A DNA stretch of 46,867 nucleotides from an uncultured Gammaproteobacteria bacterium (GTDB taxonomy: Bacteria > Patescibacteriota > Patescibacteriia > 2-12-FULL-60-25), in NCBI GenBank assembly GCA_964640115.1, contig CAZXFK010000001.1, positions 1 through 46,867 of the forward strand, in the 5' to 3' direction. The notes beneath the pieces are model-generated. The model was not told the origin of the DNA and did not search any database. It was given only the letters and a program-made list of their open reading frames with translations. Shown here piece by piece: positions 4,794 to 46,867 of this stretch. Position 1 is the first letter of the stretch. Each line of letters starts with the position of its first letter. A program made the position numbers and the translations under genes.

Positions 4794-4913
4794 CACGCAG
4801 AACCTCCTTAATTTAGGAATGCCCGCTCATTAAGACACAAATCACCAATCACGTCAACCCGCTAACTTTTCAAAAATCAACTACAAAAAAACAAATAATA
4901 AAAATTAACTACT

Positions 4914-5017
4914 CCACTCGCTTTATTATTTATTATTTTTTATTTGTTATTTAATGAAAGTACCACTCGCTTTATTATTTATAACTTTATTATTTGTTAT
5001 TTATGATTTGTTATTTA
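4914..5017 (+). repeat. 49-bp direct repeat (CCACTCGCTTTATTATTT...) filled with TTATTTG/TTATTTA heptamers (family D)
   Basis: CCACTCGCTTTATTATTTAT occurs at 4914 and 4963, followed each time by 7-bp periodic AT-rich units. Confidence 0.8.
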
Positions 5018-5247
5018 CTTCAGCATGAAACACTAAGCTCTATTTTCCATGTTCTAAACTACCTCCTGCGCCTAAGCTTCGGTGGGCACGCATGGTTCGA
5101 GGTTCATAATTCAAGGTTCGTGGTTCAATCTTTATTATTTGTTATTTATCCCGCATCAATTACTTAATATATCAAATGTATGCGGGATCCCGCCAAAGGC
5201 GGTGATTATTTGTTAATTGGTATTGTATATTTGTTATTTCCCGCTTA

Positions 5248-5931
5248 TTGTTCTATGCTTTCAATATTATGACACCGGAACTCGATTTATTATTACTCGT
5301 CAATAAACCCGCCGACATGACTTCGCATGATGTTGTAAATATCATCCGCAAAAAATACAATATACGCCGAGTTGGGCACGGAGGCACTTTGGATCCATTC
5401 GCAACGGGATTGCTTATAATCGGCATCGGCAAAGCGACTAAAAAACTCACAGACATAGTCGGTCTCGACAAAACCTACGAAGCAACAGCCATACTTGGTG
5501 CCACCTCTGACACTTACGATCTAACGGGGGAGATCGTCAAACGTCAAACGTCTAACGTCCCAAGTCAGGAGGAAATCGAAAAAGTGATGGAAAATTTCCG
5601 CGGTACCATCGAACAAAAAGCACCGGCTTATTCAGCCAAAAAAGTCGGCGGAAAAAAACTCTATGCACTCGCACGTGCCGGCGAAAATGTCGAACACCTG
5701 CGTCCAACCAAAAAAGTGGATATTACTGAACTTGTTATCACAGATTACAACTTCCCAACCTTAAAATTCCGTGTCACCTGCTCTTCCGGAACTTACATCC
5801 GTTCACTTGCCAATGACATCGGCGAAGCTTTGAGCTGCGGCGCTTATCTCTCGGAACTGAAACGAACCCGCATCGGACAATACAAACTCGAAGATGGTCT
5901 GAATTTTGACCAAGTCCCACGAAGCTTTTAG
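5248..5931 (+). CDS. truB: tRNA pseudouridine(55) synthase TruB
   Basis: VGHGGTLDPFATGLL contains the catalytic Asp motif. The start may be the Met at 5269. Confidence 0.88.
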   Translation: MFYAFNIMTPELDLLLLVNKPADMTSHDVVNIIRKKYNIRRVGHGGTLDPFATGLLIIGIGKATKKLTDIVGLDKTYEATAILGATSDTYDLTGEIVKRQTSNVPSQEEIEKVMENFRGTIEQKAPAYSAKKVGGKKLYALARAGENVEHLRPTKKVDITELVITDYNFPTLKFRVTCSSGTYIRSLANDIGEALSCGAYLSELKRTRIGQYKLEDGLNFDQVPRSF

Positions 5932-6046
5932 CGAAATGGGATACTCTCGATTCTCGATCATATTAACTTGATTATTACTCTACTTTTCGAAAATAAAATA
6001 ATAATCGTGTTAATCCGCCAAATCCCACAAATCATGGTTCAGACAG

Positions 6047-7150: not shown

Positions 7151-7492
7151 ACTTTATTGCCAAAATCAAAGTTTCCTGCTACATTATTTGAGCAGTAATT
7201 AACGTTATTAACCGTCTCGGATGCACTTGTTCGCCTTGTAATCAATGAATCAATATTTACGGTTTCTCTAGATTGCGGCTGTTCGAAACCAACTTAACGA
7301 AATTCGAAATCATTCGAATATTCCGGAGATGAATATCTCCCAAATCCACAGAAGATGCAACAACCGCCAAACGCCAAACGGCGCATTGGCATCATTTTGG
7401 AAGAATTTGATGTATATTTGGCCACATAATCGTAAAGTAAAACCGTAAGATTTTTGTACAAACGAACAAACATTCCGAGCGTATAAATTATT

Positions 7493-9213: not shown

Positions 9214-9289
9214 CCGTTACACCGTTACGACGTTATAAACGTTACGACATGACGACGTTATTGCCGTTACTCCGTTACAACGTTATACT
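9214..9289 (+). repeat. Degenerate ~8-bp tandem array (CCGTTACN / ACGTTATN), family E
   Basis: ccgttaca ccgttacg acgttata ... ccgttaca acgttata. The array ends 9 nt before the TrmB-like start codon. Confidence 0.8.
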
Positions 9290-9297
9290 ATATCCAT

Positions 9298-10035
9298 ATG
9301 CGCAACATTATCCCCGTATTAAAATCCTTAGGACTTCTGGAAAGTGAAGTCAAAACTTATTTGGCCACGCTCGAACTTGGACCAAGCACTGTTTTAGAAA
9401 TCAACAAAAAAATCGGCCTCTCCCGCCAAGCCATTTACACTGCCATTGAGTCCCTGATAACCCTCGGCCTGATGAGCTCGGTGGAAAAAGGTAAAAAAAC
9501 CCTCTTCGCCGCCGAATCCCCCGAAAGATTACGATCCTTCGCGGAGACCAAACTTAAAAAAATGGAATCAACTGTCAGAGAGATAAAAGATATTACGAAA
9601 GATTTGTCACTTGTGCAACAGGGCGAAAAACCGATCGTCCGAATGTATGAAGGCAATGAAGGTATCAAAGCAATTTTTGAAGATATTATAAAAACTACAC
9701 CAAAACATATTGATGAATTCACTAATGAAAGACTCGTCGCGGAATACTACAGCGATCTGGATCTGGGTCCATTAAAAGAAAAACTCGATAAATTAGGTAC
9801 AACCACAAATTTATTAGCAATAGGCGATCCTGAAATTAAAACTCGTAAAACTACCAAGAAAAAATTAATAACCAACTCGGGCATAAAATTCAATGGCGAT
9901 ATTTCCATTTACGATTCAAAAGTATCGCTAGCATCTTTTAAAGGAAAAGCTGTGTCAGTCATCATCGAAAGCGAAGAAATCGCACAAACACTTAGAAGTT
10001 TATTTAAACTAGCTTGGGATAACGAAAAAAAATAG
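9298..10035 (+). CDS. TrmB-family winged-helix transcriptional regulator
   Basis: The N-terminus LGLLESEVKTYLATLELGPSTVLEINKKIGLSRQAIYTAIESL matches the TrmB HTH pattern. Confidence 0.6.
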   Translation: MRNIIPVLKSLGLLESEVKTYLATLELGPSTVLEINKKIGLSRQAIYTAIESLITLGLMSSVEKGKKTLFAAESPERLRSFAETKLKKMESTVREIKDITKDLSLVQQGEKPIVRMYEGNEGIKAIFEDIIKTTPKHIDEFTNERLVAEYYSDLDLGPLKEKLDKLGTTTNLLAIGDPEIKTRKTTKKKLITNSGIKFNGDISIYDSKVSLASFKGKAVSVIIESEEIAQTLRSLFKLAWDNEKK

Positions 10036-10071
10036 CCCGGAAAACAACAGATCGTGTCTTCCGAGCTTGAG

Positions 10072-10094
10072 CTCTCCTACAAGGAGAGTTTTTT
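10072..10094. terminator. Bidirectional terminator between convergent genes
   Basis: CTCTCC-TACAA-GGAGAG followed by TTTTTT. It lies between the TrmB stop codon and the stop codon of the 10094-10891 gene. Confidence 0.7.
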
Positions 10095-10891
10095 CATCCG
10101 AAGATGCCACCTCCGGTACGTCCGAAGATGCCACCACCTTCGAATCCGAAGATGCCACCTCCGGTACGTCCGAAGATGCCACCACCTTCTTGCGTCGCGG
10201 ATGCGTACATGAAGGCTCTGTGACTCTGCTTCATGCCGCCGAACATCGCTTGTGCGAGTCCATCGACGACTTGGTTCGCTGCGCTCGCGATCTCGTTGCC
10301 GAGTTCGCATGCTTCGCGCTTTACAAGCGCGAAAAGGCTTGTTCCAAAAGCAGATTTCTCGGGCTCGCAGATCAACTTGCCGGTTTCGACGTTGAACTCG
10401 AGCTCAATTTGCTCTCGGTGAGGTCGGCGGTAACAGGTGCCGTTCTTGGGGTTCTCGCAATCGGGACCGCAGTTGCATTCGTCGCCGCTTCCTCCGTTGC
10501 TGTCGCTATCATCGTCATCATCTTCGAAGCGGGCAACATCCAAAATCGACCTTCCATTCTTCTCCGCTTCGAATGCGACGGCGAGTACGAAAATAGCGGT
10601 GATGAGGAGTGCAATTCCAAGTACCGTCGCGAATCCTTGAAACTGCAAGGCAGCATTCATCATGAACACCGCACCGCCAAGAAAGACATAGGTGTTTACC
10701 ACCTTTGCATTCCGTCTACGCTTTGCGTATTCCGAGCTCTTCAACAAGCTCGAATCATAGCCCGGGATATTGAAAGCGTAAGCTAATCCAACTCGGCCGC
10801 ACCAAAGGAAGTCCTCGACTGAGTGCAAAAAACAAAAAACTCCGTTTTTCAAAAAACTATTTTCTTCCTTTTCGCTTTTCGATTTTTCCAT
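10094..10891 (-). CDS. Hypothetical GC-rich membrane protein with C-terminal (GGGIFG)x4 tail
   Basis: Two transmembrane helices, an acidic D/S stretch, the Cys cluster CNCGPDCENPKNGTC, and the ending GGGIFGRTGGGIFGFEGGGIFGRTGGGIFG. The stop codon abuts the terminator. The start is uncertain. Confidence 0.45.
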   Translation of the reverse strand: MEKSKSEKEENSFLKNGVFCFLHSVEDFLWCGRVGLAYAFNIPGYDSSLLKSSEYAKRRRNAKVVNTYVFLGGAVFMMNAALQFQGFATVLGIALLITAIFVLAVAFEAEKNGRSILDVARFEDDDDDSDSNGGSGDECNCGPDCENPKNGTCYRRPHREQIELEFNVETGKLICEPEKSAFGTSLFALVKREACELGNEIASAANQVVDGLAQAMFGGMKQSHRAFMYASATQEGGGIFGRTGGGIFGFEGGGIFGRTGGGIFG

Positions 10892-11291: not shown

Positions 11292-11420
11292 TAAAACAAA
11301 ATACAAAAACCACAATCGCAAATTACAAATCAATATTTTTGACGCATCACATCGTTCTTGCCTTCCCCGCAAGCCACGATAAATGACTCTTCCGGCATGC
11401 TTGTCCGGATGAAACTTCTG

Positions 11421-11455
11421 CGAAATTCGAAATACGAAATTCGAATTTCGAATCA
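11421..11455 (+). repeat. Heptamer tandem array, family B (CGAAATT-like), 5 units
   Basis: cgaaatt cgaaata cgaaatt cgaattt cgaatca. Confidence 0.85.
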
Positions 11456-11747
11456 TGTCTGATTTCCCCGTCAGTAGCTCCTCACCAATTAAAGCGTCCG
11501 CTTGCGGACCAAAGAGGCGCGAACACGAATAATTGGAACTTGGATGCAAATCCATTTTAAACGATGCAATAAAAAACAAAGATCCGGATTAGCCAATCCG
11601 ATCTCTTGTAGAGTTCGTCATCCGAGGAGAAATGATGAGCTCTACTAGAGAACACACGTAATAAATTAAAAATAATAAATAACAAATAATAAAGGTAAAT
11701 ACATTCGCTCGCTATATTATTAATTGATTTATAAATTAAAACAAAAT

Positions 11748-13135: not shown

Positions 13136-13163
13136 GCCGCTAGCTACTAGCTACCAGCTATTT
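13136..13163 (-). repeat. Heptamer tandem array, family A in inverse orientation
   Basis: gccgcta gctacta gctacca gctattt, which is the reverse complement of CTRGTAG units. Confidence 0.8.
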
Positions 13164-13204
13164 ACATGATGTACGGCGGGGAAAAACAAACAAAGGAGAT
13201 TCCC

Positions 13205-13871: not shown

Positions 13872-13949
13872 CTCCCCATGCCAAACAACTCAAATTGACG
13901 TTCGACGTTAGACGTTCGACGTTAGACGCTGTTTGTTTGCTACGGGGAG
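13872..13949. repeat. Imperfect inverted repeat enclosing a GACGTTN heptamer array (family C, 13897-13931)
   Basis: CTCCCCATGCCAAACAAC ... GTTTGTTTGCTACGGGGAG flanks gacgttc gacgtta gacgttc gacgtta gacgctg. Confidence 0.75.
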
Positions 13950-14294: not shown

Positions 14295-14329
14295 CTGGTA
14301 ACTAGTGGCTAGTGGCTAGAAGCTAGTGG
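14295..14329 (+). repeat. Heptamer tandem array, family A, 5 units
   Basis: ctggtaa ctagtgg ctagtgg ctagaag ctagtgg, followed by cttaata and then the -35 box. Confidence 0.88.
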
Positions 14330-14337
14330 CTTAATAG

Positions 14338-17750: not shown

Positions 17751-17925
17751 TTGTCTGAACCTTGATTCCCTCCAAAGGCAAGCAGGCGCCTGATTAAATG
17801 ATTCCAAACCGATTTTCAAATTGTATAATTGTTCTTAAAATTTCTTTACATTTGACATTCGACGTTTGACGTTAGACATCAAATAATCAAGTTAATCAAA
17901 TAATCATGCGAATCAAGGTTCAGAC
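17751..17925. mobile_element. MITE-like element, TGTCTGAACCTTGATT family (copy 1)
   Basis: Termini TTGTCTGAACCTTGATTC and GAATCAAGGTTCAGAC are inverted. Inside are a GACNTTN heptamer array (17854-17881) and AATCAAGTTAAT motifs. There is no ORF. The right terminus overlaps the last codons and stop codon of the methyltransferase gene. Confidence 0.6.
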
Positions 17926-18740: not shown

Positions 18741-18896
18741 TTGTCTGAACCACGATTCACTCGATTATAAGATTATCTTGATTATTCATTATATTTCGAA
18801 AGAATATTGCAATAATCCTGTCGTAGATCAAGAGCGCAGTCGAGTTGTTTAATCCTTGCGTGATAATCTTGTTAAGATTGGTTCAAGGTTCAGACA
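18741..18896. mobile_element. MITE-like element, TGTCTGAACC family (copy 2)
   Basis: TTGTCTGAACCACGATT ... CAAGGTTCAGACA inverted termini, about 155 bp, no ORF. It lies in the divergent intergenic region between the methyltransferase and Elp3 genes. Confidence 0.6.
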
Positions 18897-18922: not shown

Positions 18923-21088
18923 ATGTTAATTAAACCTCCGTTGGAAATTGCCAAGACCGTGATAAAGACACTGGCTGATTTGGAATTGCCGACACGGAAG
19001 GATTTGATGATGGTTATACGCAAAACAATTAAAGATTCAAATTACGCTTTCCCAACTTCAATTCAACTTTGGGAGGCTTATCGCGATTTGCAATCTCAAG
19101 GATTTGCCAAAAATGAAAAAATTGAAAAAGTTTTAAAAGTTAAAGATGTGCGTACGGATAGTGGAGTGGCTCCGATAACCGTACTTACCAAACCTTACCC
19201 CTGCCCCGGTAAATGCGTTTATTGCCCCACCGAATACCGCATGCCCAAAAGCTACATCTCCAGCGAACCGGCGGCTGCTCGTGCTCTTAGCCTTGATTTT
19301 GACCCTTACGAGCAAGTTAAACAAAGAGTCCAAGCTTTGGAGCGTAACGGACATACGGCCAACAAAATCGAACTCATTGTGAAAGGCGGCACTTGGTCCG
19401 CTTACCCCAAAGATTACCGCGAGTGGTTCATAACCCGTTGCTTCCAAGCCGCCAACGACCTCGGTAACTCCCCCTCGTCAGAGGGGAGTTCAAGCCCTCT
19501 TGTCAAAGAGGGACATCCAGCGAATGCTGGATTGGAAGATTCCCAATCCATCAACGAAACCTCCGCTTACCGCATCATCGGCCTTACCATTGAAACTCGT
19601 CCCGACCACATCACTCCGGATGAAATCATCCACCTCCGCAAACTCGGAGTTACGAGGGTTGAACTCGGCCTGCAGATCATCAACGATAGAGTTTTAGAAC
19701 TCACTGGACGCGGAACAACCGTCGCCGACGCCGAACTTGCAATCACATTACTTAAAAACGCAGCCTTTAAAGTCGATGTACACATTCTCCCCGGCCAACC
19801 CGGCGCTTCTCGCGAGGATGATTTGGAATCTTTCAAAACTTTATTCGATGATCCCCGCTTTCGCCCCGACATGATCAAACTCTACCCTTGTGTTGTACTC
19901 CCCAACTCCGAATTGTACGAAATAACCAAACGCGGTGATTTCAAACCGCTGGAAGGAGAAGATCTACGCGAGTTACTTATAGAGATGCAAGCAATGATCC
20001 CTTATTATTGCAGGGTCTCGCGCCTTATTCGCGATTTCCCCACGGCCGACATTTCTCACGGCAATAAACAAACCAACTTACGCGAATCAATCGAATCCGA
20101 GATGAACAAGCGCGGTATCAAATGCAAATGCCTGCGTTGCCGTGAAGTCGGCCACGTTCCGGGCGATCATACGAACGACAAAACTCAACTCTTCGAAGAA
20201 CGCTACGAAAACGCCGGCGGAACCGAGGTATTCCTCTCGATCGAAAACCAAGATCGCAGTGCGGTTTTTGGTTTTTGCAGACTAAGACTGCCGAAAATCC
20301 CCCAATCTGACGATTCTCGTCAAATATCCCCCTTTGACAAGGGGGCGGGTTGCAAGGTTGATGAGTTAACCATACATGGCGAAACCCTTCCCTATAACAT
20401 ATTACTGAAAGAAAATGCAAATAAGCTGCGCAACAATCAAACACTTGCCGAAAAAAAACTTTGGTACGATGTTTTATCCAAAGATCAAACCGGATTTCGT
20501 TTTTTAAGACAGAAGCCTATTGATTCATTTATCGCGGATTTCTACTGCTCAAAACTCATGCTTATCATCGAGGTTGATGGTAAAATTCATGAAAAGCAAA
20601 AAGAATACGACGAATCTAGAACATATTGTTTAGAAGATTTAGGCCTAAAAATCATCCGTTACACAAATGAAGAAATTCTTCACAACCTCCCAGATGTAAA
20701 AAAAGATTTAGATCATCATATCCAAATAAGATTAAACGAAATTAAACAAGCAGCCGCCAAAAAAGCATCCATCGAAGCGCCCCCTCGTCAAAGGGGGATA
20801 ATTGCACAAAGTGCGATTTGGGGGATTTACGAAGCTTTCCCCATTCTCAAAACCTCCGCCCAAATCCGCGAGCTCCACACTTATGGGACAGCTTTAAACA
20901 TCAACCAACAAAATCAAGAAGCTTCACAACACAAAGGCTATGGCAGAACTTTGATGGCGAGAGCGGAAGAAATCGCTCAAAACGAAGGCTACGAACACAT
21001 GGCCGTCATCTCCGGCATAGGAGTTCGCGAATATTACAAAAACCTCGGATATCACGAACAAGATACTTACATGGTCAAAGAATTGTAA
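18923..21088 (+). CDS. Elp3-like radical-SAM/GNAT tRNA wobble-uridine modification enzyme carrying in-frame insertions
   Basis: Radical-SAM CPGKCVYCP, the GLTIETRPD and VELGLQ motifs, and a C-terminal GNAT region (IRELHTYG...QHKGYGRTLMARAEEIA...VISGIGVREYYKNLGY). At 721 aa it is clearly longer than I expect for a bacterial or archaeal Elp3, which I recall as roughly 450-550 aa. Confidence 0.82.
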   Translation: MLIKPPLEIAKTVIKTLADLELPTRKDLMMVIRKTIKDSNYAFPTSIQLWEAYRDLQSQGFAKNEKIEKVLKVKDVRTDSGVAPITVLTKPYPCPGKCVYCPTEYRMPKSYISSEPAAARALSLDFDPYEQVKQRVQALERNGHTANKIELIVKGGTWSAYPKDYREWFITRCFQAANDLGNSPSSEGSSSPLVKEGHPANAGLEDSQSINETSAYRIIGLTIETRPDHITPDEIIHLRKLGVTRVELGLQIINDRVLELTGRGTTVADAELAITLLKNAAFKVDVHILPGQPGASREDDLESFKTLFDDPRFRPDMIKLYPCVVLPNSELYEITKRGDFKPLEGEDLRELLIEMQAMIPYYCRVSRLIRDFPTADISHGNKQTNLRESIESEMNKRGIKCKCLRCREVGHVPGDHTNDKTQLFEERYENAGGTEVFLSIENQDRSAVFGFCRLRLPKIPQSDDSRQISPFDKGAGCKVDELTIHGETLPYNILLKENANKLRNNQTLAEKKLWYDVLSKDQTGFRFLRQKPIDSFIADFYCSKLMLIIEVDGKIHEKQKEYDESRTYCLEDLGLKIIRYTNEEILHNLPDVKKDLDHHIQIRLNEIKQAAAKKASIEAPPRQRGIIAQSAIWGIYEAFPILKTSAQIRELHTYGTALNINQQNQEASQHKGYGRTLMARAEEIAQNEGYEHMAVISGIGVREYYKNLGYHEQDTYMVKEL
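20387..20740 (+). mobile_element. DUF559 (Vsr-like endonuclease fold) module embedded in frame within Elp3
   Basis: LPYNILLKENANKLRNNQTLAEKKLWYDVL...FRFLRQKPIDSFIADFYCSKLMLIIEVDGKIHE...RTYCLEDLGLKIIRYTNEEILHN matches the full-length DUF559 pattern. It is flanked by the hairpins CCCCCTTTGACAAGGGGG (20328-20345) and CCCCCTCGTCAAAGGGGG (20780-20797). Confidence 0.75.
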
Positions 21089-21113: not shown

Positions 21114-23492
21114 TTATGCCAATTCTTTTCTCACTTTTAATATTTTATCTCTATCTTGTTCCGCATCTCTTAATCTTTGCTTCAAAGACAAAATTACATG
21201 CTCTTTGCTATCAGACTCGGATTCAGCTTTACGCAGATCTTGCAACAATCTGGCAATTTCCATTTCCTGCATCTCTTTGACCAAATCATTTCTTAGCAAA
21301 ATAAACTCCAACTCTTGTTGTTTTAATTTATCCTTACCTTTATCTTTAAGTTTCTTGGCTATAAACTCCATCATCTGCCTGTTTATTTCAGCCAAAGAAA
21401 CATTTTTGGATTTATACTCATTAGCCAGCTCCTCGATCAATCTGCGTCCTTCCAGTCCAAATATGGATTTGGATGAATATGAATACAAAACTTCCAAATC
21501 CGCGCCTTCTTGATGATCGGGTTTTGTTCTCATGATTTCTCTGTTAAACAAAAGCACAAATCTGTTAACCGTTTTATCACCTTCAACCAACGCATCCGCG
21601 GTATTGAGCAATTTATCCGGATCAGCCATTTCGGGATCCGAATTTTTTCCGTATGAGGATAATCCGAAATTAAATTGCAAAAATTCATCTTTATATCTCG
21701 TTCGGGCTCCGGAGTGTGGAGGAATACTTTCAACATCGTTTAATGCCGAAAAACGTATATCGTTTATTATTTGATGAACCGTTTCCAGATCATCCGAATT
21801 AACTGTTACAACAAATTCGTCCCCGCCTATTCGATAGGCTTGAGTTCCCAAATATTCGTATTTGCGAGCGATATTATCTAAAACTCTTCCCGCCGCCTTA
21901 ATTGCAGCGTCTCCGGTTTGTTTTCCGCCTTCTTTGTCAAAATATTTTAAAAACGCCATATCAATCGAAACAACGGAAACGGGCTGTGAATCTGCCAAAC
22001 GCGCACCCATTTCTTGAAACAACATCCCTCGATTTTTTAATCCTGTTAAAGTATCTTGTTTAAGCTTATTCACTTCCAACCGCAATTCAGCCAATTCTTT
22101 TTTCTTGCGAAACACTTGATTTTTTGGATCAACAGCTTCCGCTTCTTTTGCCAAGTCTAACTCATCTTCCAACTTTTTTGCCGATAATTCACCTCGCGAC
22201 TGACCCAGGCCATCTAAACGCTTTTTAAAATCATCAACTTTATTTATATCTTCTTTTGTTACTTCCTTTTTACGAGATTTCGAATCCATTTTACTTAAAT
22301 CTTCAACATTAACAACCATTCCTTCTCTCGCTGCTCTTTCGTGCAATTCGTCTATCAATTTTTTTTGCAAATCAATTTCCATCTTAACCGTCATTTCATG
22401 AGAATCTTGGAAATTCCTTATAGCTTCATCACGCGAAACCGTAAACTTAGTTTGATCCCATTGCAACTGATTATAATCCGCTCCCAAAACACCGGCACCT
22501 CTTTCTTGTAAGGCTTTTACAAATTCCGAATAATCAAAAGCTTCCGTTCTACCCGCTTCGGCAAACAATAATCCCAAAGATTTTTTTAAATATTTTTCGT
22601 ATAAATCATTCGGATTCAGTTCATCGGGATTATTTATTATATTCACCATTCTATCCAACCTTGTTTTTATTTTTACAAATTCTCCCAAAACAAACATCCT
22701 TTCCCGCAACAAAGTAATCAATAAATTTTTATCTTTACTTGATTGGTCATTCTCATCAACAGTTTCTTTATCCGCAGTCTCAAAATCAGTCAATTCTTTC
22801 AATAACTCGAAACTATTATTCAATGTGATGGCATGAGCCGCCAAAGGAACGCTTTCCACTTTATGATCAGTTTCAATTTGTATAAGTCCATTCAAACTTT
22901 CAACGATATTGTCAACAATTTCCTTATCAACATCTTTTACTATCACGGCAAAATCATTACCGCTCATTCGATACACCTCAAACATTTGCGGTATTTTTTC
23001 CTCAAGATTTTCATCCTGTAAATGCCGTCTTATATTACCTGCGAATTGCTGTTGAATTTTATCATAGGCCAAACCCAAACCCACATCTCCCAGCCTGTGC
23101 TCGCCTATTGAATTCAATCTGTCCAATTCTCCCATATTAACCAAAATCAAATGATTTTTGTGCAGACTTTCAGAATCTTCAACAAAAGGTTTATCGGATT
23201 CATTTCTGCCAAGACCCATTTCATCCAACAAATCACCCAATTCCAATCCGAAACGCTGACCTTTTTTAGCTCCCGTAATATCTCTTTCCCAAATATAAAA
23301 TTCCAACTCTTGCTTGGCAATTTCCAGATCCAAACTCAATACTTCTCGTTCTTCGTGCAATAACTTTTCCTCACCCGACTTTTCATCATCTGCGAGTAAC
23401 TTATTTTGCAACTCTGCAACTTTTCTATTCTTAACTGCCGTTTCATTTATATATTGCTCGGTTTTCAACCGGCGCATTTCTTGAGGAATCAT
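21114..23492 (-). CDS. Coiled-coil protein with tandem GGDEF-type domains (N-terminal degenerate SGNDF, C-terminal intact GGDEF)
   Basis: The second domain reads LTGLKNRGMLFQEM...VSIDMAFLKYFDKEGGKQTGDAAIKAAG...YRIGGDEFVV, which is canonical. The first reads LVNMGELDRLNSIGEHRLGDVGL...YRMSGNDFAVIV. No RxxD I-site is seen and there is no transmembrane segment. Confidence 0.7.
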   Translation of the reverse strand: MIPQEMRRLKTEQYINETAVKNRKVAELQNKLLADDEKSGEEKLLHEEREVLSLDLEIAKQELEFYIWERDITGAKKGQRFGLELGDLLDEMGLGRNESDKPFVEDSESLHKNHLILVNMGELDRLNSIGEHRLGDVGLGLAYDKIQQQFAGNIRRHLQDENLEEKIPQMFEVYRMSGNDFAVIVKDVDKEIVDNIVESLNGLIQIETDHKVESVPLAAHAITLNNSFELLKELTDFETADKETVDENDQSSKDKNLLITLLRERMFVLGEFVKIKTRLDRMVNIINNPDELNPNDLYEKYLKKSLGLLFAEAGRTEAFDYSEFVKALQERGAGVLGADYNQLQWDQTKFTVSRDEAIRNFQDSHEMTVKMEIDLQKKLIDELHERAAREGMVVNVEDLSKMDSKSRKKEVTKEDINKVDDFKKRLDGLGQSRGELSAKKLEDELDLAKEAEAVDPKNQVFRKKKELAELRLEVNKLKQDTLTGLKNRGMLFQEMGARLADSQPVSVVSIDMAFLKYFDKEGGKQTGDAAIKAAGRVLDNIARKYEYLGTQAYRIGGDEFVVTVNSDDLETVHQIINDIRFSALNDVESIPPHSGARTRYKDEFLQFNFGLSSYGKNSDPEMADPDKLLNTADALVEGDKTVNRFVLLFNREIMRTKPDHQEGADLEVLYSYSSKSIFGLEGRRLIEELANEYKSKNVSLAEINRQMMEFIAKKLKDKGKDKLKQQELEFILLRNDLVKEMQEMEIARLLQDLRKAESESDSKEHVILSLKQRLRDAEQDRDKILKVRKELA

Positions 23493-25309: not shown

Positions 25310-25396
25310 CATCCGTATCAACCGGATAAGAATGGCGTGCCATCCGTATCTACCGGATAAGGATGGCGTGCCATCCGTAGCTTTAGCGAAGGATGG
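25310..25396. repeat. 31-bp tandem hairpin repeat (2.8 copies) abutting the tRNA-Leu 3' end
   Basis: CATCCGTATC(A/T)ACCGGATAAG(A/G)ATGGCGTGC twice, plus a partial third copy that runs into the tRNA CCA end. Each unit folds as CATCCGTATC/GATAAGGATG. Confidence 0.85.
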
Positions 25397-27002: not shown

Positions 27003-27031
27003 AGCACGGATAAACACGAGGTTTATCCCTA
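27003..27031. repeat. Hairpin element GCACGGATAAACAC-GAG-GTTTATCCCTAC (copy B)
   Basis: 8-bp stem GGATAAAC/GTTTATCC. Same arms as the element at 1981-2046. Confidence 0.7.
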
Positions 27032-27085
27032 CGAGTCATTTTAAGTGCATCTCTGTCAGCTGCAACTGCAACGTAGAAAGATGAT

Positions 27086-27162
27086 GGATTGGGATTAAGC
27101 TGGTGACTGGTGGCTGGTGGCTGGTGGCTGGTGGCTGGTAGCTGGTAGCTCGTAGCTAGTGG
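27086..27162 (+). repeat. Heptamer tandem array, family A, 11 units
   Basis: ggattgg gattaag ctggtga ctggtgg x4 ctggtag x2 ctcgtag ctagtgg, followed by cttaaaaattt and the polX ATG. Confidence 0.92.
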
Positions 27163-27173
27163 CTTAAAAATTT

Positions 27174-28923: not shown

Positions 28924-30537
28924 TCACTTTTTTTCTTTATTTTGAATTTCATTCAAAACCGCATTCCAGCGATTATTGATGTATTCGGCGGCCGCATCGT
29001 TCCCGGCCCAACCAATGCTCGTGATAAGCCGAACATCACTATCGGCACCACTGTCTTCCCAAGCGGAGGGAACGTATCTGACACCGAATGTTGCAGTCAT
29101 ATCGTTGAAAAGAGCCAGCGAGCCGCCAAAACCACCCGAAAAACGCAAATGATCTATTGTATCATTAAACTCCGGTCTGTCGCCAAAAGCTACAGTCCCC
29201 GAGCCATCTGCAAAGACAGAGTAGATGCTGGCACCGTAGGAAAACTGCGACCCTAACTCAATAGGAAAGTACTTATTACCGGAAACGTATCTACCATTTA
29301 GTAAATACGCATTCGAATATGCGGAAATCGACGCACCTCTACCAAGCAAAAACTCAAATACGTAAGATGGCCGTAGCAGCACACCATTTGCGGTCGCAAA
29401 ATTAAGTGATGTTGCATACCTAGCTTGATTCAAACAAGTATCACGTAAGTCGATGAAATCAACCTCGGCTTTATTTGCATCGTTTGATGATTTCGTTTGC
29501 GTAGTAGCGAGTGCATCTTTAATACACTTACTCATGCCAGCATCTAAGGTTGGATCCAATTCATTTGCAAGATCCCAACCGATGGCTATTGCCTTATTCG
29601 TATCAGATCCTTCTTGATTCCATTTTGGACCTTGAGCCGCGCCAAAAGAAAACCAAAGCGCCCGCCAAAAATTCAATCCGCCTTCAATTGCCAGAATTGG
29701 TTGCTTCTTTCCTTGCGCCTTCTTCCAATCATCTTGCAAAGAAAGAAAATATGGCTTAATCCTGCCACCCACCGAAGCGTAAGCTGTACCACCATCCATC
29801 ACAATCGGCATTTGCAAACTCGTCATGCGAGTATCGCTTGGCCTGATGGCATTGGTAAGCCCGGCTGACAACATCGGTTCAGTTGGCACTTGCGGGGGAA
29901 CCGGAGGGTCAACTTTTGTTGGTGGTGTTCTGTCATCACCCGTGGGAGGTGGCGGTGGAGGCGGAGTGCAAGGCTGAGACGCGGTAGTTGTATGGGGTGG
30001 AGGTGGCACGGTGATACCGGGGCATTGCCCGGTTTGGCAACAATTGCATTGCAATTGCCCCTGCATATTCAATGTTATGTTGGCCGGTAATGGTACATCA
30101 AACCTCATAACACCGCACTCAACCAACCCCTCGCTTAGTGATGCCGCATACAAAGGAATCAGTCGCTCTGGCGTAAAACACAATTTAGGATCAATCAAAA
30201 TTTCATTCTGTTGGCCATCAATACCGGTTACAACAGACCTGAAGTTTTTTCCATAACACGACCTGGGATTACTACTGGTTCCATGATTTTGATGTTCAAC
30301 CACTTTCTGCGAATATTCTCGCACCTTTCGCAAAATCAGCCTATCCAAATCTTCTTTGGATTTTGGATGTTCAACCGCGTTACATTTTTCTCTGAGCTGT
30401 GCAGCCATCACATTTGCATATATATAGGCATTACTGCAACAATTTGCAGGCCTACCATCTTGTGCTTTAGCATCAATGACAAGCAAAGAAACTGCCGCAA
30501 AAACGATCATCATTTGTGTATTTATGTACTTTTTCAT
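28924..30537 (-). CDS. Secreted hypothetical protein: signal peptide, Cys-rich domain, poly-Pro linker, beta-rich C-terminal domain (GC-rich)
   Basis: MKKYINTQMMIVFAAVSLLVIDAKA looks like a signal peptide. PPPPHTTTASQPCTPPPPPPPTGDDRTPPTKVDPPVPPQVP is the linker. The C-terminal half has alternating hydrophobic and aromatic residues. Confidence 0.55.
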   Translation of the reverse strand: MKKYINTQMMIVFAAVSLLVIDAKAQDGRPANCCSNAYIYANVMAAQLREKCNAVEHPKSKEDLDRLILRKVREYSQKVVEHQNHGTSSNPRSCYGKNFRSVVTGIDGQQNEILIDPKLCFTPERLIPLYAASLSEGLVECGVMRFDVPLPANITLNMQGQLQCNCCQTGQCPGITVPPPPHTTTASQPCTPPPPPPPTGDDRTPPTKVDPPVPPQVPTEPMLSAGLTNAIRPSDTRMTSLQMPIVMDGGTAYASVGGRIKPYFLSLQDDWKKAQGKKQPILAIEGGLNFWRALWFSFGAAQGPKWNQEGSDTNKAIAIGWDLANELDPTLDAGMSKCIKDALATTQTKSSNDANKAEVDFIDLRDTCLNQARYATSLNFATANGVLLRPSYVFEFLLGRGASISAYSNAYLLNGRYVSGNKYFPIELGSQFSYGASIYSVFADGSGTVAFGDRPEFNDTIDHLRFSGGFGGSLALFNDMTATFGVRYVPSAWEDSGADSDVRLITSIGWAGNDAAAEYINNRWNAVLNEIQNKEKK

Positions 30538-30629
30538 ACCGGTTTCCCTTTCCAATGTGAATGTACCGCATATTTAATATACCCTTTCTTGTTCTATGTC
30601 AATACCAAAAACTTAACAATTAATAGTAT

Positions 30630-33163: not shown

Positions 33164-33274
33164 ATCTCCTAACCCTCAAAGCCTCATAGCTTCTGCGAAG
33201 TGGGTTAGCAAAGTTGATCGGCGAAGTGGATTAGCTTTATTATTTATTATTTATTATTTGTTGCTTTATTATTT

Positions 33275-33298
33275 TAAAATCGCCCTAAAGCGATTTTA
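33275..33298. terminator. Hairpin between the BKACE gene and tRNA-Arg (weak terminator)
   Basis: AAAATCGC-CCTAAA-GCGATTTT. The T-run is part of the stem, so its function is uncertain. Confidence 0.35.
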
Positions 33299-38106: not shown

Positions 38107-39135
38107 TTACATTGGCTTCATCAGTCTTCGGAAAAATACCAATCTGTACAACGGCAAATTCATTGGTAAATCCCATGTACCAACCAAACACTTGCGCTCC
38201 GCTCCCCAGCCCATTTTAAACCTCGTGATTCCCTCCCAACTTGCCTTATACAACGGCGTTGCCTTACTTTCCGGATTACATCCCCAAAAATCATACCACT
38301 TGGCACCTTCGGATTTAGCCTGTTTTATCGCCTCCCACTGCAAGGCATAAGGCGCCATAGCTTGGCGAATTTTAGAGCTGGATGCGCCGTATAAATAAGT
38401 CACCGTATTGCCGTAATTAACCTCCAGATTAGCCGCCAGCATGGCTCCATTTACTTCGGCAACTCTTAAACGCGCCATATGTGCGGCCGCCAAAGTATAT
38501 AAAGTCTTGGATAAATATGCCGAATCATGTTGCACGAATCCGTCACGTAAAGCCGTTTCATCCATCAATCTAATAAATTGATCCACATCTTTTGGATGAT
38601 TTGTGGTTCTGATGGCAACTTCGTGTTTTGCCGCCACTTTAATATTGTAACGCGTCTTTTGATGCATTGCCGAAAGCAAGTCATTTTCAGTTTTGGATAA
38701 ATCCAAAATAGCCGTACAAGCCGGATTCATAGCCGGCACTCGATTCATACGCGGAGGCAAAACTCTTACGTTTGATTTGGGATAAACAAGCGGTTCCATC
38801 CGCCAAAACAATGATTTCGGTATTTGATTCTTGCCATATAATTCGCGGATAAAAATTTTCAAATATTCTTTTCGCTCTTCCTCTGTTACCCGCGGATGAA
38901 ATTGCGGCCCGCGCGGTGTAAACCAATATCCCAATCCGAATCTTTTTGACCTGTACTCCCCCTGCGCCGCCATAATCCACCGTCCATCTTTATCAACCAA
39001 GGCAAACCGTTGCACCGGAAAACCCAAAGATTTTCTAAACTCCCCCCAAACCCAAGACTGCGGAAATTGCATCCAAGCCTGCTGTGATTGAAACGCCTCC
39101 CAATCCATTCTATCGGTTATTTCTTTTATAAGCAT
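38107..39135 (-). CDS. FemAB-family aminoacyl-tRNA-dependent peptidoglycan peptide-bridge transferase
   Basis: FPQSWVWGEFR...HQKTRYNIKVA...TYLYGASS...APYALQWEAIKQAKSEGAKWYDFWG matches the FemX/FemAB pattern. TATAAT lies 6 nt upstream of the ATG, so the mRNA may be leaderless. Confidence 0.85.
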   Translation of the reverse strand: MLIKEITDRMDWEAFQSQQAWMQFPQSWVWGEFRKSLGFPVQRFALVDKDGRWIMAAQGEYRSKRFGLGYWFTPRGPQFHPRVTEEERKEYLKIFIRELYGKNQIPKSLFWRMEPLVYPKSNVRVLPPRMNRVPAMNPACTAILDLSKTENDLLSAMHQKTRYNIKVAAKHEVAIRTTNHPKDVDQFIRLMDETALRDGFVQHDSAYLSKTLYTLAAAHMARLRVAEVNGAMLAANLEVNYGNTVTYLYGASSSKIRQAMAPYALQWEAIKQAKSEGAKWYDFWGCNPESKATPLYKASWEGITRFKMGWGAERKCLVGTWDLPMNLPLYRLVFFRRLMKPM

Positions 39136-39157: not shown

Positions 39158-39190
39158 GTCGTAACGTTATAACGTTATAACGTCGTAACG
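39158..39190 (+). repeat. 8-bp tandem array (GTCGTAAC GTTATAAC), family E
   Basis: gtcgtaac gttataac gttataac gtcgtaac. Confidence 0.85.
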
Positions 39191-39194
39191 AAAA

Positions 39195-39411
39195 TTGTCT
39201 GAACCTTGATTATCAAACCGATTACCAACCTAATTAACTTGATTACTAATTGTCTGAACCTTGATTTAAAAACCGATTACCAACCTAATTAACTTGATTA
39301 CTAAAGGTAGAGATAATCATATACATATAGTAATCAAGTTAATATGAGCGTGAATATGAGCGGTAATCCCCCTTCGCCTTTGGCTACGAGGGACACGGTC
39401 AAGGTTCAGAT
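39195..39411. mobile_element. MITE-like element, TGTCTGAACCTTGATT family (copy 3, with 55-bp internal tandem duplication of the left end)
   Basis: TTGTCTGAACCTTGATT...ATTAACTTGATTACTAA occurs at 39195 and 39250. The right terminus is CAAGGTTCAGATA at 39400-39412. No ORF. Confidence 0.6.
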
Positions 39412-39416
39412 AATAG

Positions 39417-39458
39417 CTAGAAGCTAGAAGCTAGAAGCTGGTAGCTGGTAGCTCGTGG
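39417..39458 (+). repeat. Heptamer tandem array, family A, 6 units
   Basis: ctagaag x3 ctggtag x2 ctcgtgg, followed by ctgttaa. It ends 7 nt from the ruvA stop codon. Confidence 0.9.
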
Positions 39459-39465
39459 CTGTTAA

Positions 39466-40023
39466 TTATCGGCTTAGATACTTCAACGCAATCCTCACTC
39501 TTTCCGATGAATTGGTAATCTCCACCGGCACATTCTTGGCCGCTTCTTTTGCTTGCGCGGTTTTATAACCCAATCCTTTAAGCGCATCAATCAGTTCTGT
39601 ATCCATTTCCGATTCCGCGTCGATTTCTACAAGTTGACCCTTGAGCTCAAGAATGATTTTCTGTGCGGTTTTGTTGCCGATTCCCGGCAACGTGGCAAAC
39701 CAAGCCGCGTCACTCTTCATAACCCTCTCGCGCAATTCCGATGGAGTTGCCGAACCGCAAATTGCCAAACCGGCTTTTGGGCCTATGCCGTTAATACTGA
39801 TTAAAATTTCAAAAACCTCCAATTCATCCCTTGATGGAAAACCGTACAAATCATGGGCGTCCTCACGAATATGCTCGTGGATAAAAATCGTAGGTTCATC
39901 ACCCACCGTGAGATCCCCTAACAACCGCAAATGCGCCCGCACTTGATATCCAACTCCGCGTACATCCAAAATAAAAAAACTTGTTGTTTTTTCTATAACT
40001 TCGCCTCGTAACATTCCTATCAT
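39466..40023 (-). CDS. ruvA: Holliday junction DNA helicase subunit RuvA
   Basis: MIGMLRGEV...VGYQV N-terminal OB fold plus HhH motifs (INGIGPKAGLAI, LPGIGNKTAQKI). Confidence 0.9.
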   Translation of the reverse strand: MIGMLRGEVIEKTTSFFILDVRGVGYQVRAHLRLLGDLTVGDEPTIFIHEHIREDAHDLYGFPSRDELEVFEILISINGIGPKAGLAICGSATPSELRERVMKSDAAWFATLPGIGNKTAQKIILELKGQLVEIDAESEMDTELIDALKGLGYKTAQAKEAAKNVPVEITNSSERVRIALKYLSR

Positions 40024-44794: not shown

Positions 44795-44842
44795 ATGGCT
44801 CTTATATTGGCGGAAAATTCGGGATTGGTCAACTAAACACAT

Positions 44843-44878
44843 TCTTAACGTTGATAACGTTCTTAACGTTTATAACGA
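44843..44878 (+). repeat. 9-bp tandem array (NNTAACGTT), family E
   Basis: cttaacgtt gataacgtt cttaacgtt tataacgag. Confidence 0.8.
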
Positions 44879-46207: not shown

Positions 46208-46648
46208 ATGCAACTCTTCCTCGCATCCGACCATGCCGGTTTTAAACTCAAAGAAGCCATCAAAAAAGAACTCGGCAAAACACACAACATCATCGACGTA
46301 ACTCCCGTTTTTAATAAAGACGACGACTACCCTTTAGTCGCCAAAAAACTCGTTAAACATCTTCGACGTGGGACAAGCGACGCGGGACGAGCGACGATGT
46401 CAGTTTTCATCTGTGGCTCCGGTGTTGGTGCGGCAATAGCCTCAAACAGATACAAAGGCATTCGCGCCGCCCAAGGCTACGACAAAAAAGAAATCCAACT
46501 CGCCCGCGAGCATAACGATATCAATGTCCTCACTCTCTCCGGCTGGAACACAAAACCAAAAGAAGCTCTTGCATTAATCGACGTCTTCCTCAAAACCCCA
46601 ACATCCAAAGCCATTCGACATAAGAGACGGATAAAACAACTGTCTTGA
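46208..46648 (+). CDS. rpiB: Ribose-5-phosphate isomerase B
   Basis: LASDHAGFKLKE...ICGSGVGAAIASNRYKGIRAA...AREHNDINVLTLSG is the RpiB/LacAB signature. Confidence 0.88.
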   Translation: MQLFLASDHAGFKLKEAIKKELGKTHNIIDVTPVFNKDDDYPLVAKKLVKHLRRGTSDAGRATMSVFICGSGVGAAIASNRYKGIRAAQGYDKKEIQLAREHNDINVLTLSGWNTKPKEALALIDVFLKTPTSKAIRHKRRIKQLS

Positions 46649-46867
46649 ACCACGATTCGCATGATTTCCGCTCACAATTATCATGATTATTTTATTGTCT
46701 GAACCTTGATTATCCCGAACTAGTGGAAAGTTCATCAAGTCTAAAGTTTATCAAGAGAAGCTTAGGTTACTCTTGATGAACTTGTTACTTTTAACTTGAT
46801 GAACTCATCTAGTAATCAAGACACGTCGTTCGCGAACGACAGTGTCAAGTTAATCAAGGTTCAGACG
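46641..46867. mobile_element. MITE-like element(s), TGTCTGAACC family (copy 4, runs to the window edge)
   Basis: TGTCTTGAACCACGATT at 46641 contains the rpiB TGA stop codon. TTGTCTGAACCTTGATTA is at 46695, and the inverted terminus AATCAAGGTTCAGAC is at 46852-46866. Confidence 0.55.

Follow-up and report, generated by a model that had tools for sequence, protein, structure and literature searches.

RESULTS

Heptanucleotide arrays in the noncoding DNA of a Uhrbacteria-like genome

We analyzed a 46,867-nucleotide (nt) stretch of DNA (contig CAZXFK010000001.1; hereafter the window), in which short, degenerate tandem arrays of 7-nt units lie in gaps between genes, among them an array just upstream of the gene encoding a PolX-PHP polymerase (PolX). 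In addition to PolX, the window encodes the core proteins IF-2, RNase Y, S16, KhpA, thioredoxin, TruB, IleRS and a class II aminoacyl-tRNA synthetase, as well as three tRNAs, which were the only matches in the window when Rfam was searched at the gathering threshold. The host is an uncultivated, Candidatus Uhrbacteria-like member of the Patescibacteria; among named RNase Y homologs, the closest bear the label Candidatus Uhrbacteria or Patescibacteria. The GC content is ~43%, and since the GC skew is negative over the whole length, the window contains no replication landmark. Relatives were retrieved via PolX, KhpA and RNase Y homologs, from assemblies that represent different samples and pipelines (an NCBI metagenome-assembled genome [MAG], ENA, JGI and Logan), and the material examined comprises the 47 kb window and ~85 kb from these relatives. 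One of them, L003 (MAG CALFEO01), is ~91% identical to the window at the nucleotide level, and two others, L153 and L154, are the same contig as L001. An exact-protein look-up in the collection searched returned no protein identical to PolX, to the trx product or to the product of the gene at 13166.

The array upstream of PolX belongs to a family with the unit GCTRGTR (family A), whose arrays in the window are as follows:

27086–27164, + strand: array upstream of PolX; Tandem Repeats Finder (TRF) reports 27099–27164 with period 7, 9.4 copies and 89% matches
1432–1473, + strand: 5.9 units, starting right after the stop codon of trx (– strand) and preceding a terminator hairpin and the rpsP promoter
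13136–13163, – strand: inverted array of about 3–4 units, 2 nt upstream of the ATG at 13166
14295–14331, + strand: ~5 units, adjoining the –35 box of the promoter for the gene at 14402
39414–39460, + strand: AGCTAGA x3, AGCTGGT x2 and AGCTCGT, adjoining the end of an element that resembles a miniature inverted-repeat transposable element (MITE)

The PolX array begins with GGATTGGGATTAA, which is followed by nine 7-nt units (GCTGGTG, GCTGGTA, GCTCGTA or GCTAGTG), and its end is separated from the PolX ATG (27174) by 9 nt that contain no Shine-Dalgarno (SD) sequence. The promoter beside the 14295 array is strong and sigma-70-like (TTGACA-16 nt-TATATT), and the 39414 array lies 5 nt after the stop codon of the – strand gene at 39466–40023. 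Family A arrays run with or against the direction of transcription and lie 5' of genes, 3' of genes or upstream of promoters. Three of its four plus-orientation arrays end with CTAGTGGCTTA, which confirms what the original prediction, made from the letters of the window, had said of them.

We count about 25 degenerate tandem arrays in the window, with a period that is nearly always 7. A strict detector found 11 period-7 segments, seven of period 14, one of period 8 and one of period 15, and none at the other periods from 2 to 13, compared to 0.0 segments in dinucleotide shuffles. With a lenient detector, there were 20 period-7 segments (0.05 in shuffles), while the remaining periods from 2 to 13 gave 0–3 segments, as expected by chance; period 14 (2 x 7) was likewise above chance. 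At lags 7, 14 and 21, noncoding DNA had autocorrelations of 0.310, 0.294 and 0.291, respectively, over a background of ~0.27, and coding DNA displayed a period of 3 alone. Thus, the predicted period-7 arrays were borne out, with an excess over shuffles that is specific to the period and a lag-7 autocorrelation confined to noncoding DNA. Masking the arrays left no lag-7 signal in noncoding DNA, which indicates that the arrays are discrete and not a diffuse property; likewise, no decayed arrays, sought as residual period-7 signal, were found in the remaining intergenic DNA after masking.

Arrays make up about 15–19% of the noncoding DNA, which itself is 18% of the window (coding, 82%). Seventeen of the 20 period-7 segments fall outside open reading frames (ORFs) of at least 100 amino acids, so the proposed exclusion from coding sequence holds for most segments, but it is not complete: arrays occur in a loop of truB, in a loop of rpiB and in a loop of the L003 PolX. 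The truB loop carries a period-7 unit in the window, in L150 and in L155, each time a different one. The proposal that arrays occupy most intergenic regions was an overstatement, as arrays are present in 14 of the 35 gaps that span 50 nt or more, and in 11 of the 15 that span 250 nt or more.

TRF returned dozens of period-7 rows with unit matches of 60–90%, as well as super-periods of 14, 21 and 28 nt, a pattern that misalignment of existing arrays by whole units would produce. Clustering of consensus units yielded the families GCTRGTR (A), ATTTCGA (B), CGTCAAA/GACGTT (C) and TTTATTA (D), with at least eight unrelated unit families overall. These are the families that had been proposed, and the repeats described for them, and for the 8–9-bp arrays with an AACGTT core, are present at every coordinate given. 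A 7-nt step shifts the reading frame, and units like GCTAGTG close all six frames. The period had been said to match neither codons nor the DNA helix; three units, however, add up to 21 nt, equal to seven codons and to two turns of the helix. When folded as single strands, unpaired arrays have weak structure and diffuse ensembles.

Several other explanations do not account for the arrays. Clustered regularly interspaced short palindromic repeat (CRISPR) arrays have direct repeats of ~24–48 nt with unique spacers of similar length, whereas the units here are 7 nt long, contiguous and free of spacers. We considered a role as Chi sites, since (GCTGGTG)n holds overlapping E. coli Chi octamers GCTGGTGG (window 27099–27135). 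However, A and G substitute freely for each other at the fourth base when the window is compared with L003, so the octamer GCTGGTGG is unconstrained and the arrays are unlikely to act in a Chi-like way in this lineage. CTAG, TTCGAA, ACGT or CATG is present in many units, and arrays account for 14 of the 34 CTAG sites of the window; a palindrome or restriction-site explanation was rejected because CTAG is not specially avoided given the trinucleotide composition (observed/expected 0.84).

The family A unit is common elsewhere. At least 120 metagenome contigs, none of them a relative of the window and ranging in GC content from 0.31 to 0.72, carry four copies of GCTRGTR, as do 45 viral contigs, compared to 5–6 for two permuted control units. 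The viral excess is mainly due to long perfect (GCTGGTG)n tracts of 10–22 copies in contigs (L158, L159, L170, L186 and others) of similar GC content (0.54–0.59), many of them ~40 kb long and with the tracts often at their ends. We draw no functional conclusion from this.

Arrays are concentrated at predicted gene ends

For 10 of 24 arrays, the distance to a gene start or stop is 12 nt or less, compared to 2.1 expected if arrays are placed at random in the same gaps (P < 0.001). Counting the array at the window edge (53–68), seven of 25 abut a predicted start, at a distance of up to 10 nt and upstream of genes without an SD sequence, four abut stops, and the others are located elsewhere. Start codons were taken from the longest ORF, and alignment supports the starts of trx, rpsP and PolX and not the others; moreover, where an array closes all frames, some predicted starts could lie nearer to it than the true ones do.

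The region from infB to rpsP illustrates the arrangement. On the transcribed strand, the infB stop is followed by an array, an intergenic stretch (with the 1862–1896 array and a putative promoter), another array and the trx ATG; the trx stop is followed by an array, a terminator hairpin, a promoter (TTGACA-17-TATGAT), a leader with two inverted arrays and the rpsP ATG. This order places arrays in DNA resembling 3' untranslated regions (UTRs) and 5' leaders, and the 14295 array lies just upstream of a –35 box.

The array-adjacent genes (trx, rpsP, PolX, IleRS and the genes at 13166 and 9298) have no SD sequence, whereas other genes of the window have clear ones, with a strong AAGGAGG. Upstream of 38107–39135, 46208–46648, 9298–10035 and 21114–23492, we also noted a –10-like hexamer 6–11 nt before the ATG and no SD sequence, which suggests that these genes have leaderless mRNAs. 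In addition, an identical 14-mer, AGGTTTATCCCTAC, occurs at 2032–2045 and 27019–27032, in a GGATAAAC/GTTTATCC hairpin beside the infB 3' array and the PolX 5' array; the 14-mer may be a shared terminator-like motif.

Most arrays differ between close relatives

A search of related genomes, as had been proposed, found arrays in L003, L150, L029 and L155/L156, at densities that differ widely. Per 10 kb, there are 4.3 arrays in the window, 10.5 in L029, 7.4 in L155/L156, 4.6 in L150, 1.4 in L153/L154 and 0.9 in L003. All array-rich loci that we examined fall in one clade, and among more distant PolX-bearing loci, both bacterial and archaeal, 21 of 25 are without arrays and four have 1–4. In the loci examined, the 7-nt bias is thus clade-wide rather than site-specific. 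Among the four distant loci with arrays, a contig of an unrelated Elusimicrobia MAG (L024) has four period-7 arrays in 13 kb, including an inverted CAGAAGA/TTCTGAT pair at 2369–2507, and shows that the phenomenon has a sporadic phylogenetic spread.

Relatives differ by whole units added to or lost from an array, by concerted changes of units, by the presence or absence of entire arrays, and by the replacement of one family with another at a single site. The PolX array has equal length in L003 (9.4 units) and differs at seven positions in 63 nt, compared to two in ~100 nt of flank; the differences mostly affect one unit position across runs of neighboring units, a pattern that, on the alignment, reads as concerted unit turnover. 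The array 3' of trx (1432–1473) has 11.7 units in L029, compared to 5.9 in the window, and is absent in L155. In L150, the 13136–13163 array is kept with unit changes, and the 14295 array is represented by 4.6 plus 12.4 units with a local duplication. Relative to L003, the 39414 array is a clean 42-bp insertion of six units beside a native, unit-like GGCTGTT.

A few four-unit arrays are conserved in leaders

The leaders of trx and rpsP contain two arrays each:

1801–1830, – strand: family B (CGAAATT/CGAAATA) x4 on the mRNA strand, 9–10 nt upstream of the trx ATG
1862–1896, – strand: UAUUUUG/UAUUUCG array of the trx leader, complementary to 1801–1830 and the predicted 5' arm of a long hairpin
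1145–1177, – strand: AATTATG/AATTAAG x4.7, 9 nt upstream of the rpsP ATG, 3' arm of the leader hairpin
1226–1258, – strand: inverted partner array, 5' arm of the rpsP leader hairpin

The trx leader array has four units in the window, L029, L155 and L154; it is identical in the window and L155, and in L154 the unit is TTTTGAA. Similarly, L029 and L154 share an identical (ACGATGT)x4 array upstream of trmD. By comparison, fourfold synonymous sites of trx, infB and rpsP are 31–41% identical between the window and L155, which is saturation. In the rpsP leader, two inverted AU-rich arrays form a hairpin in four lineages. The relatives use arrays of the TTTATTA family, and in the window the AATTATG family has taken over both arms with complementarity kept (31-nt arms, 81% complementary, fold z = –3.5). 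The modelled pairing of 1801–1830 with 1862–1896 in the trx leader is suggestive only, with four compensatory pairs and a score reached by 6 of 500 shuffles in an alignment of four sequences. An inverted partner within 200 nt is present for 7 of 47 arrays of the clade, compared to none in shuffled flanks, so pairing is a minority feature.

Since the four-unit arrays of trx and trmD and the rpsP arrays are conserved despite saturated synonymous sites, they are likely to be functional leader elements. Judged from this conservation, the arrays at trx, trmD and rpsP are most likely parts of 5' leaders that lack SD sequences, where they would act in translation initiation or mRNA stability. Thus, the sequence comparison separates two behaviors, in which most arrays turn over fast and a few four-unit arrays at start codons are conserved.

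We also note that two longer regions, the ~190 nt upstream of trx (1789–1975, – strand) and the rpsP leader (1136–1370, – strand), are more conserved in the clade than synonymous sites and have no Rfam match. A search of positions 1–2200 at E ≤ 1 gave nothing credible, so no known RNA family accounts for the conserved trx and rpsP leaders. These regions are candidates for novel cis-regulatory leaders with hairpins built from arrays.

Other arrays in the window

The remaining arrays, and the inverted partner of one group, are as follows:

53–68, unstranded: TTCGTAA x2.1, 6 nt after the khpA stop, at the window edge
533–552, unstranded: CATGTTA x2.9, between the khpA promoter and start codon
2053–2122, unstranded: family B, about 10 units (TTCGTGG/TTCGTAA) with 14- and 28-nt super-periods, beginning 2 nt after the infB stop
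4922–4953 and 4971–5017, + strand: two family D arrays (TTTATTA/TTTGTTA) in the divergent region upstream of truB
4872–4902: inverted partner of the family D arrays at 4922–5017
5091–5128, + strand: degenerate CATGGTT/CAAGGTT x5.3, placed in family B by the original prediction
5131–5149, + strand: family D x2.7, interrupted by a ~45-nt palindromic element, ATCCCGCAT...ATGCGGGAT
5206–5239, + strand: family D x4.9, just upstream of truB
5535–5559, + strand: CGTCAAA x3.6, in a variable loop within the truB coding sequence
7361–7380, unstranded: CAAACGC x2.9, upstream of the RNase Y gene
9214–9289, + strand: 8–9-bp CGTTAYNN array with a 25-nt super-period, overlapping a promoter-like TTGCCG-17-TATACT
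11421–11455, + strand: family B x4.7, with 26 nt identical to the trx leader array, inverted
11659–11693, – strand: family D, inverted, x5
13897–13931, + strand: family C (GACGTTC GACGTTA) x2.3, equal to 4.6 units
17848–17881, + strand: family C x4.3, within the MITE-like element at 17753–17925
33236–33275, + strand: family D x5.4, 25 nt from the 3' end of tRNA-Arg
39158–39190, unstranded: 8-bp TAACGTTA array, 22 nt upstream of the ATG of the – strand gene at 38107–39135, beside its –10 box
44843–44878, unstranded: 9-bp TTCWTAACG x4, abutting the predicted IleRS start codon at 44842 (– strand)
46364–46396, + strand: 14-nt (2 x 7) array of CGACGCGGGACAAG x2.4, within a loop of the rpiB-like coding sequence

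Several of these sites also differ between relatives. Downstream of khpA, L029 has ACATGTA x6.7 instead of TTCGTAA x2, and the 2053–2122 array is absent in L029, has another unit in L155 and is decayed in L154. The site of the 5206–5239 array holds at least 15 units in L150/L151, and the L151 contig stops within it. The 13897–13931 array has 3.6 units in another order in L150, and the ortholog of the 33236–33275 array in L003 has 2.7 units plus an inserted palindromic element. The 17848 array is found in the window only, being absent in all four relatives that cover the site. The 9214–9289 array, which ends 8 nt before the ATG of a TrmB-family gene, is conserved in L150, with three differences in 76 nt.

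In coding sequence, the truB loop has CGTCCCA in L150, CGTCCTA in L155 and an 8/15-nt repeat in L029. In L003, 51 nt of (GCGACGCGGGACAA)n are inserted, in frame, into a variable loop of PolX; this insertion belongs to one family with the period-14 array of the window rpiB. Both contain the GC-rich 12-mer GCGACGCGGGAC.

Mobile-like elements and sequences shared between loci

Arrays have only their units in common; a MITE-like family and a palindromic element are distinct features of the same genomes. The MITE-like family is about 150–220 bp long, with terminal inverted repeats (TIRs) GTCTGAACCTTGATT...AATCAAGGTTCAGAC, and is found at 17753–17925, 18743–18895, 39197–39414 and 46697–46866, with a solo end at 6030–6044. 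We obtained nine matches, compared to 0.06 expected; copies are present in L003, L150 and L029, and the family is absent at the orthologous L001 site. One copy has a 55-bp internal tandem duplication (39193–39304). An origin of the arrays from MITEs or target-site duplications was rejected: the ends of the MITE-like elements are different, and most arrays have no element nearby.

The palindromic element (~45 nt, ATCCCGCATCAATTAyTTAAwATATCAAATGyATGCGGGATCCCG) lies at 5148–5192 in the window and at 14406–14450 in L003. It sits in TTTATTA arrays at these two non-homologous loci, and the window ortholog of the L003 site (33236–33275) is without it. Together with the family D array, the window copy (5127–5192) is 92% identical to L003 14385–14450, at a different locus. 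The element resembles the small dispersed repeats that are reportedly inserted in the heptamer arrays of cyanobacteria such as Nostoc (Elhai et al. 2008). Other sequences are also shared between loci. The 26-nt identity noted above joins 11420–11445 to 1806–1831, and L150 has duplicated an array with ~140 nt of its flank.

We noted further repeats and insertions in the window that are separate from the arrays. A 31-bp tandem repeat (2.3–2.8 copies; 25310–25396) abuts the 3' end of tRNA-Leu(CAA) and may be an integration-site remnant. At 10096–10189, a perfect 48-bp tandem duplication with a 24-bp sub-period encodes a Gly/Thr/Ser-rich stretch within the overlapping ORFs 10094–10891 (–) and 10067–10786 (+), both without a Pfam match. 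The gene at 18923–21088 encodes a 721-amino-acid Elp3-like radical-SAM/GNAT protein with a DUF559 domain (Vsr-like endonuclease) between the radical-SAM and GNAT parts. The orthologs in L153 and L155 are 552–558 amino acids long and have no DUF559, while the domain is present in L150; it may be an inserted endonuclease module. Finally, a 543-amino-acid ORF without a Pfam match (28924–30555) is cleanly missing from L003, which is otherwise syntenic.

DISCUSSION

Origin of the arrays

We conclude that the arrays are heptanucleotide repeats of a known bacterial type, probably made by slippage or unequal recombination with a bias to 7 nt, and that a minority has probably been co-opted into leaders. 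Slipped-strand mispairing or unequal recombination would create the arrays and remodel them, as the turnover seen between relatives suggests, and the repeat-making process of this lineage would strongly prefer 7-nt registers. Arrays would then build up where frameshifts and stop codons are harmless, that is, between stop and terminator, between promoter and start, and upstream of promoters; those in protein loops would be rare and found where the total length keeps the frame. The mutational process would act everywhere, with selection as the filter, and selection would capture a minority, represented by the four-unit arrays upstream of trx, trmD and rpsP, two of which may form a hairpin with an inverted partner. 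The whole-unit changes, the concerted replacement of units and the presence or absence of arrays in relatives fit slippage with a 7-nt bias.

Several points weigh against this account. Pure slippage does not explain identical families at unrelated loci, such as GCTAGTG, or GCGACGCGGGAC in two genes of two genomes, nor does it explain a preference for 7 nt over 5, 6 or 8 nt. GCTAGTG, which contains CTAG, recurs although CTAG is otherwise rare. Moreover, the perfect (ACGATGT)x4 and (CGAAATT)x4 arrays hold their copy number over large divergence, so either slippage is not fast or selection is strong. The variation in copy number comes from comparison between genomes, the covariation of the hairpins from four sequences, and the distances from arrays to starts from longest-ORF predictions, which may shrink them.

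We considered that the arrays might instead be multivalent cis-regulatory sites in UTRs and promoters, kept by selection and not by mutation bias, for an RNA- or DNA-binding protein that recognizes a periodic target. Candidates, by analogy with proposals for the TAACTGA repeats discussed below, would be ribosomal protein S1 and cold-shock, CsrA-like or KH proteins. This could account for the strong enrichment of arrays at gene ends, for the lack of SD sequences in array-adjacent genes where other genes have clear ones, and for the conservation of the trx and trmD arrays and the rpsP hairpin, and it has published parallels (PMC4679880; bioRxiv 10.1101/2022.06.06.494920). However, a single platform is difficult to reconcile with at least eight unrelated unit families, with the varied orientation and position of family A, with arrays that also arise in protein loops, and with the finding that genomes of ~90% identity disagree in the copy number, unit or presence of most arrays; we therefore regard it as possible but unlikely. 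A partial rival is that arrays spread by copy and paste, carried or inserted with the MITE-like or palindromic elements or moved by ectopic gene conversion. The families shared by non-homologous loci point this way, as do the 26-nt identity, the GCGACGCGGGAC array of rpiB and the L003 PolX, the 17848 array inside a MITE-like element and the 39414 array abutting one, the palindromic element and family D array that recur together at a different L003 locus, and the array that L150 duplicated with its flank. Nevertheless, most arrays have neither TIRs nor an associated element and share at most a partial unit of flank, the palindromic element seems to have entered an existing array and not to have brought it along, the gain at 39414 can be seeded from the native GGCTGTT, and the 20 window ORFs scanned against Pfam include no transposase or reverse-transcriptase gene. 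As a general source of arrays, copy and paste is thus improbable.

Phase variation, in which gain or loss of a 7-nt unit switches a neighboring gene on or off, has a precedent in the 7-bp promoter repeats that control the high-molecular-weight (HMW) adhesins of Haemophilus influenzae (PMC8262952, PMC12721329), and copy number does differ between relatives at several sites. We nonetheless consider this very improbable and do not place the arrays among phase-variable contingency repeats: the neighbors are housekeeping genes (infB, trx, rpsP, khpA, truB, ileS and PolX), the degenerate units (60–90% matches) suppress slippage, there is no array between –35 and –10 boxes or in the 5' part of an ORF, and the perfect arrays are precisely those with conserved copy number. 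The original prediction had raised the concern of mis-assembly, and arrays do break assemblies, as contigs L151, L152 and L156 end within them. However, identical arrays are found in independent assemblies (L155 and L156; L150, L151 and L152), and orthologous arrays occupy the same sites with evolutionary differences of the expected kind. Thus, the arrays are not mis-assembled, and we give practically no credence to an artefact of assembly or sequencing.

Having favored biased slippage with partial co-option, we mention a more speculative extension, which we think rather doubtful. The arrays could form a modular cis-regulatory "alphabet" in this Uhrbacteria clade, in which four-unit arrays, sometimes paired in hairpins, would take the place of SD-based initiation regions and of elements in the 3' UTRs of core genes (trx, rpsP, trmD, infB, PolX and ileS) and be read by a putative factor with 7-nt periodicity, while a lineage-specific activity with a 7-nt register would supply the arrays.

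Significance

Heptanucleotide repeats are the commonest class of long simple sequence repeat in bacteria. With a genome of roughly 1 Mb (an inferred size), this lineage offers a compact natural test system, in which array-rich genomes (the window, L029 and L155) can be compared with an array-poor sister (L154) for differences in the replication or repair genes that set the 7-nt bias. To our reading, the split between fast-turnover arrays and constrained four-unit arrays at start codons is the first made in such organisms, and the constrained arrays direct attention to SD-independent translation leaders in Patescibacteria. In practice, the arrays break short-read assemblies of candidate phyla radiation (CPR) genomes and could serve as strain markers.

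Comparison with known heptanucleotide repeats

The original prediction knew of no described function for such arrays. The question of function is a fair one, but intergenic heptanucleotide repeats are already a described class, even though a literature search for heptamer tandem repeats together with Patescibacteria found no report. In the survey of Mrazek, Guo and Shah (2007, PNAS 104:8472), as summarized in PMC4679880 and PMC4692102, heptamers are the most abundant unit of long simple sequence repeats (LSSRs) in prokaryotes, and the length of DNA held by the polymerase is proposed to favor 7-nt slippage. According to these summaries, LSSRs have head-to-tail 7-nt units beyond chance, with heptamers dominant, lie mostly between genes, occur sporadically across lineages, and vary in length and sequence among close relatives. 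The arrays described here have tandem 7-nt units in a number beyond chance, an intergenic excess and whole-unit length differences between relatives, and we have adopted the same slippage mechanism. They differ in their host, since the survey, so summarized, links LSSRs of 5–11 nt with large, GC-rich, free-living genomes and the genome here is that of a member of the Patescibacteria, small and of moderate GC content (43%). They also differ from LSSRs as summarized there in being short (3–10 units) and degenerate, with a subset that is conserved and paired in hairpins.

Among specific systems, the short tandemly repeated repetitive (STRR) sequences of heterocystous cyanobacteria, including Calothrix (Mazel et al. 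1990, as cited in PMC4692102), are similar in that several heptamer families are dispersed through the intergenic DNA of one genome. The units differ and the phylum is unrelated, and homology is not implied; no 3-unit match to the STRR units CCCCAGT, TTGGTCA and CAACAGT was found in the window on either strand with up to two substitutions. The GGGNATC/GGGGAYT repeats of Xanthomonas and Nostoc, which form G-quadruplexes (Rehm et al. 2015, PMC4692102), are likewise intergenic, over-represented within 50 bp of ORF starts and stops, variable in length among relatives and unlinked to surface or virulence genes. However, those repeats need G3 tracts and prefer four units for a G-quadruplex (PMC4692102), whereas the window units have no GGG and no strong single-strand structure.

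Parallels to the leader arrays are offered by the TAACTGA direct repeats that marine Beggiatoaceae have in common with some Cyanobacteria and Bacteroidetes (MacGregor 2015, PMC4679880), which form arrays of 2–6 copies a few nt upstream of housekeeping starts, including those of ribosomal-protein genes, with occasional copies in ORFs. That system has one dominant unit, and related heptamers are rare, while here there are many families and many arrays lie 3' of genes; no TAACTGA array is present in the window. In Nostoc PCC 7120, TTTTGAA/TTCAAAA repeats near starts or promoters affect the expression of recF and recO (bioRxiv 10.1101/2022.06.06.494920). They are similar in being contiguous heptamers near starts, and TTTTGAA is also the unit of the L154 trx leader; the effect on expression was measured in Nostoc alone. 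Since the units of the described heptamer systems are absent from the window arrays, these are the same kind of feature but not the same family by sequence. Thus, the phenomenon itself is not new, and the arrays are a further example of a known, if poorly understood, class of repeats.

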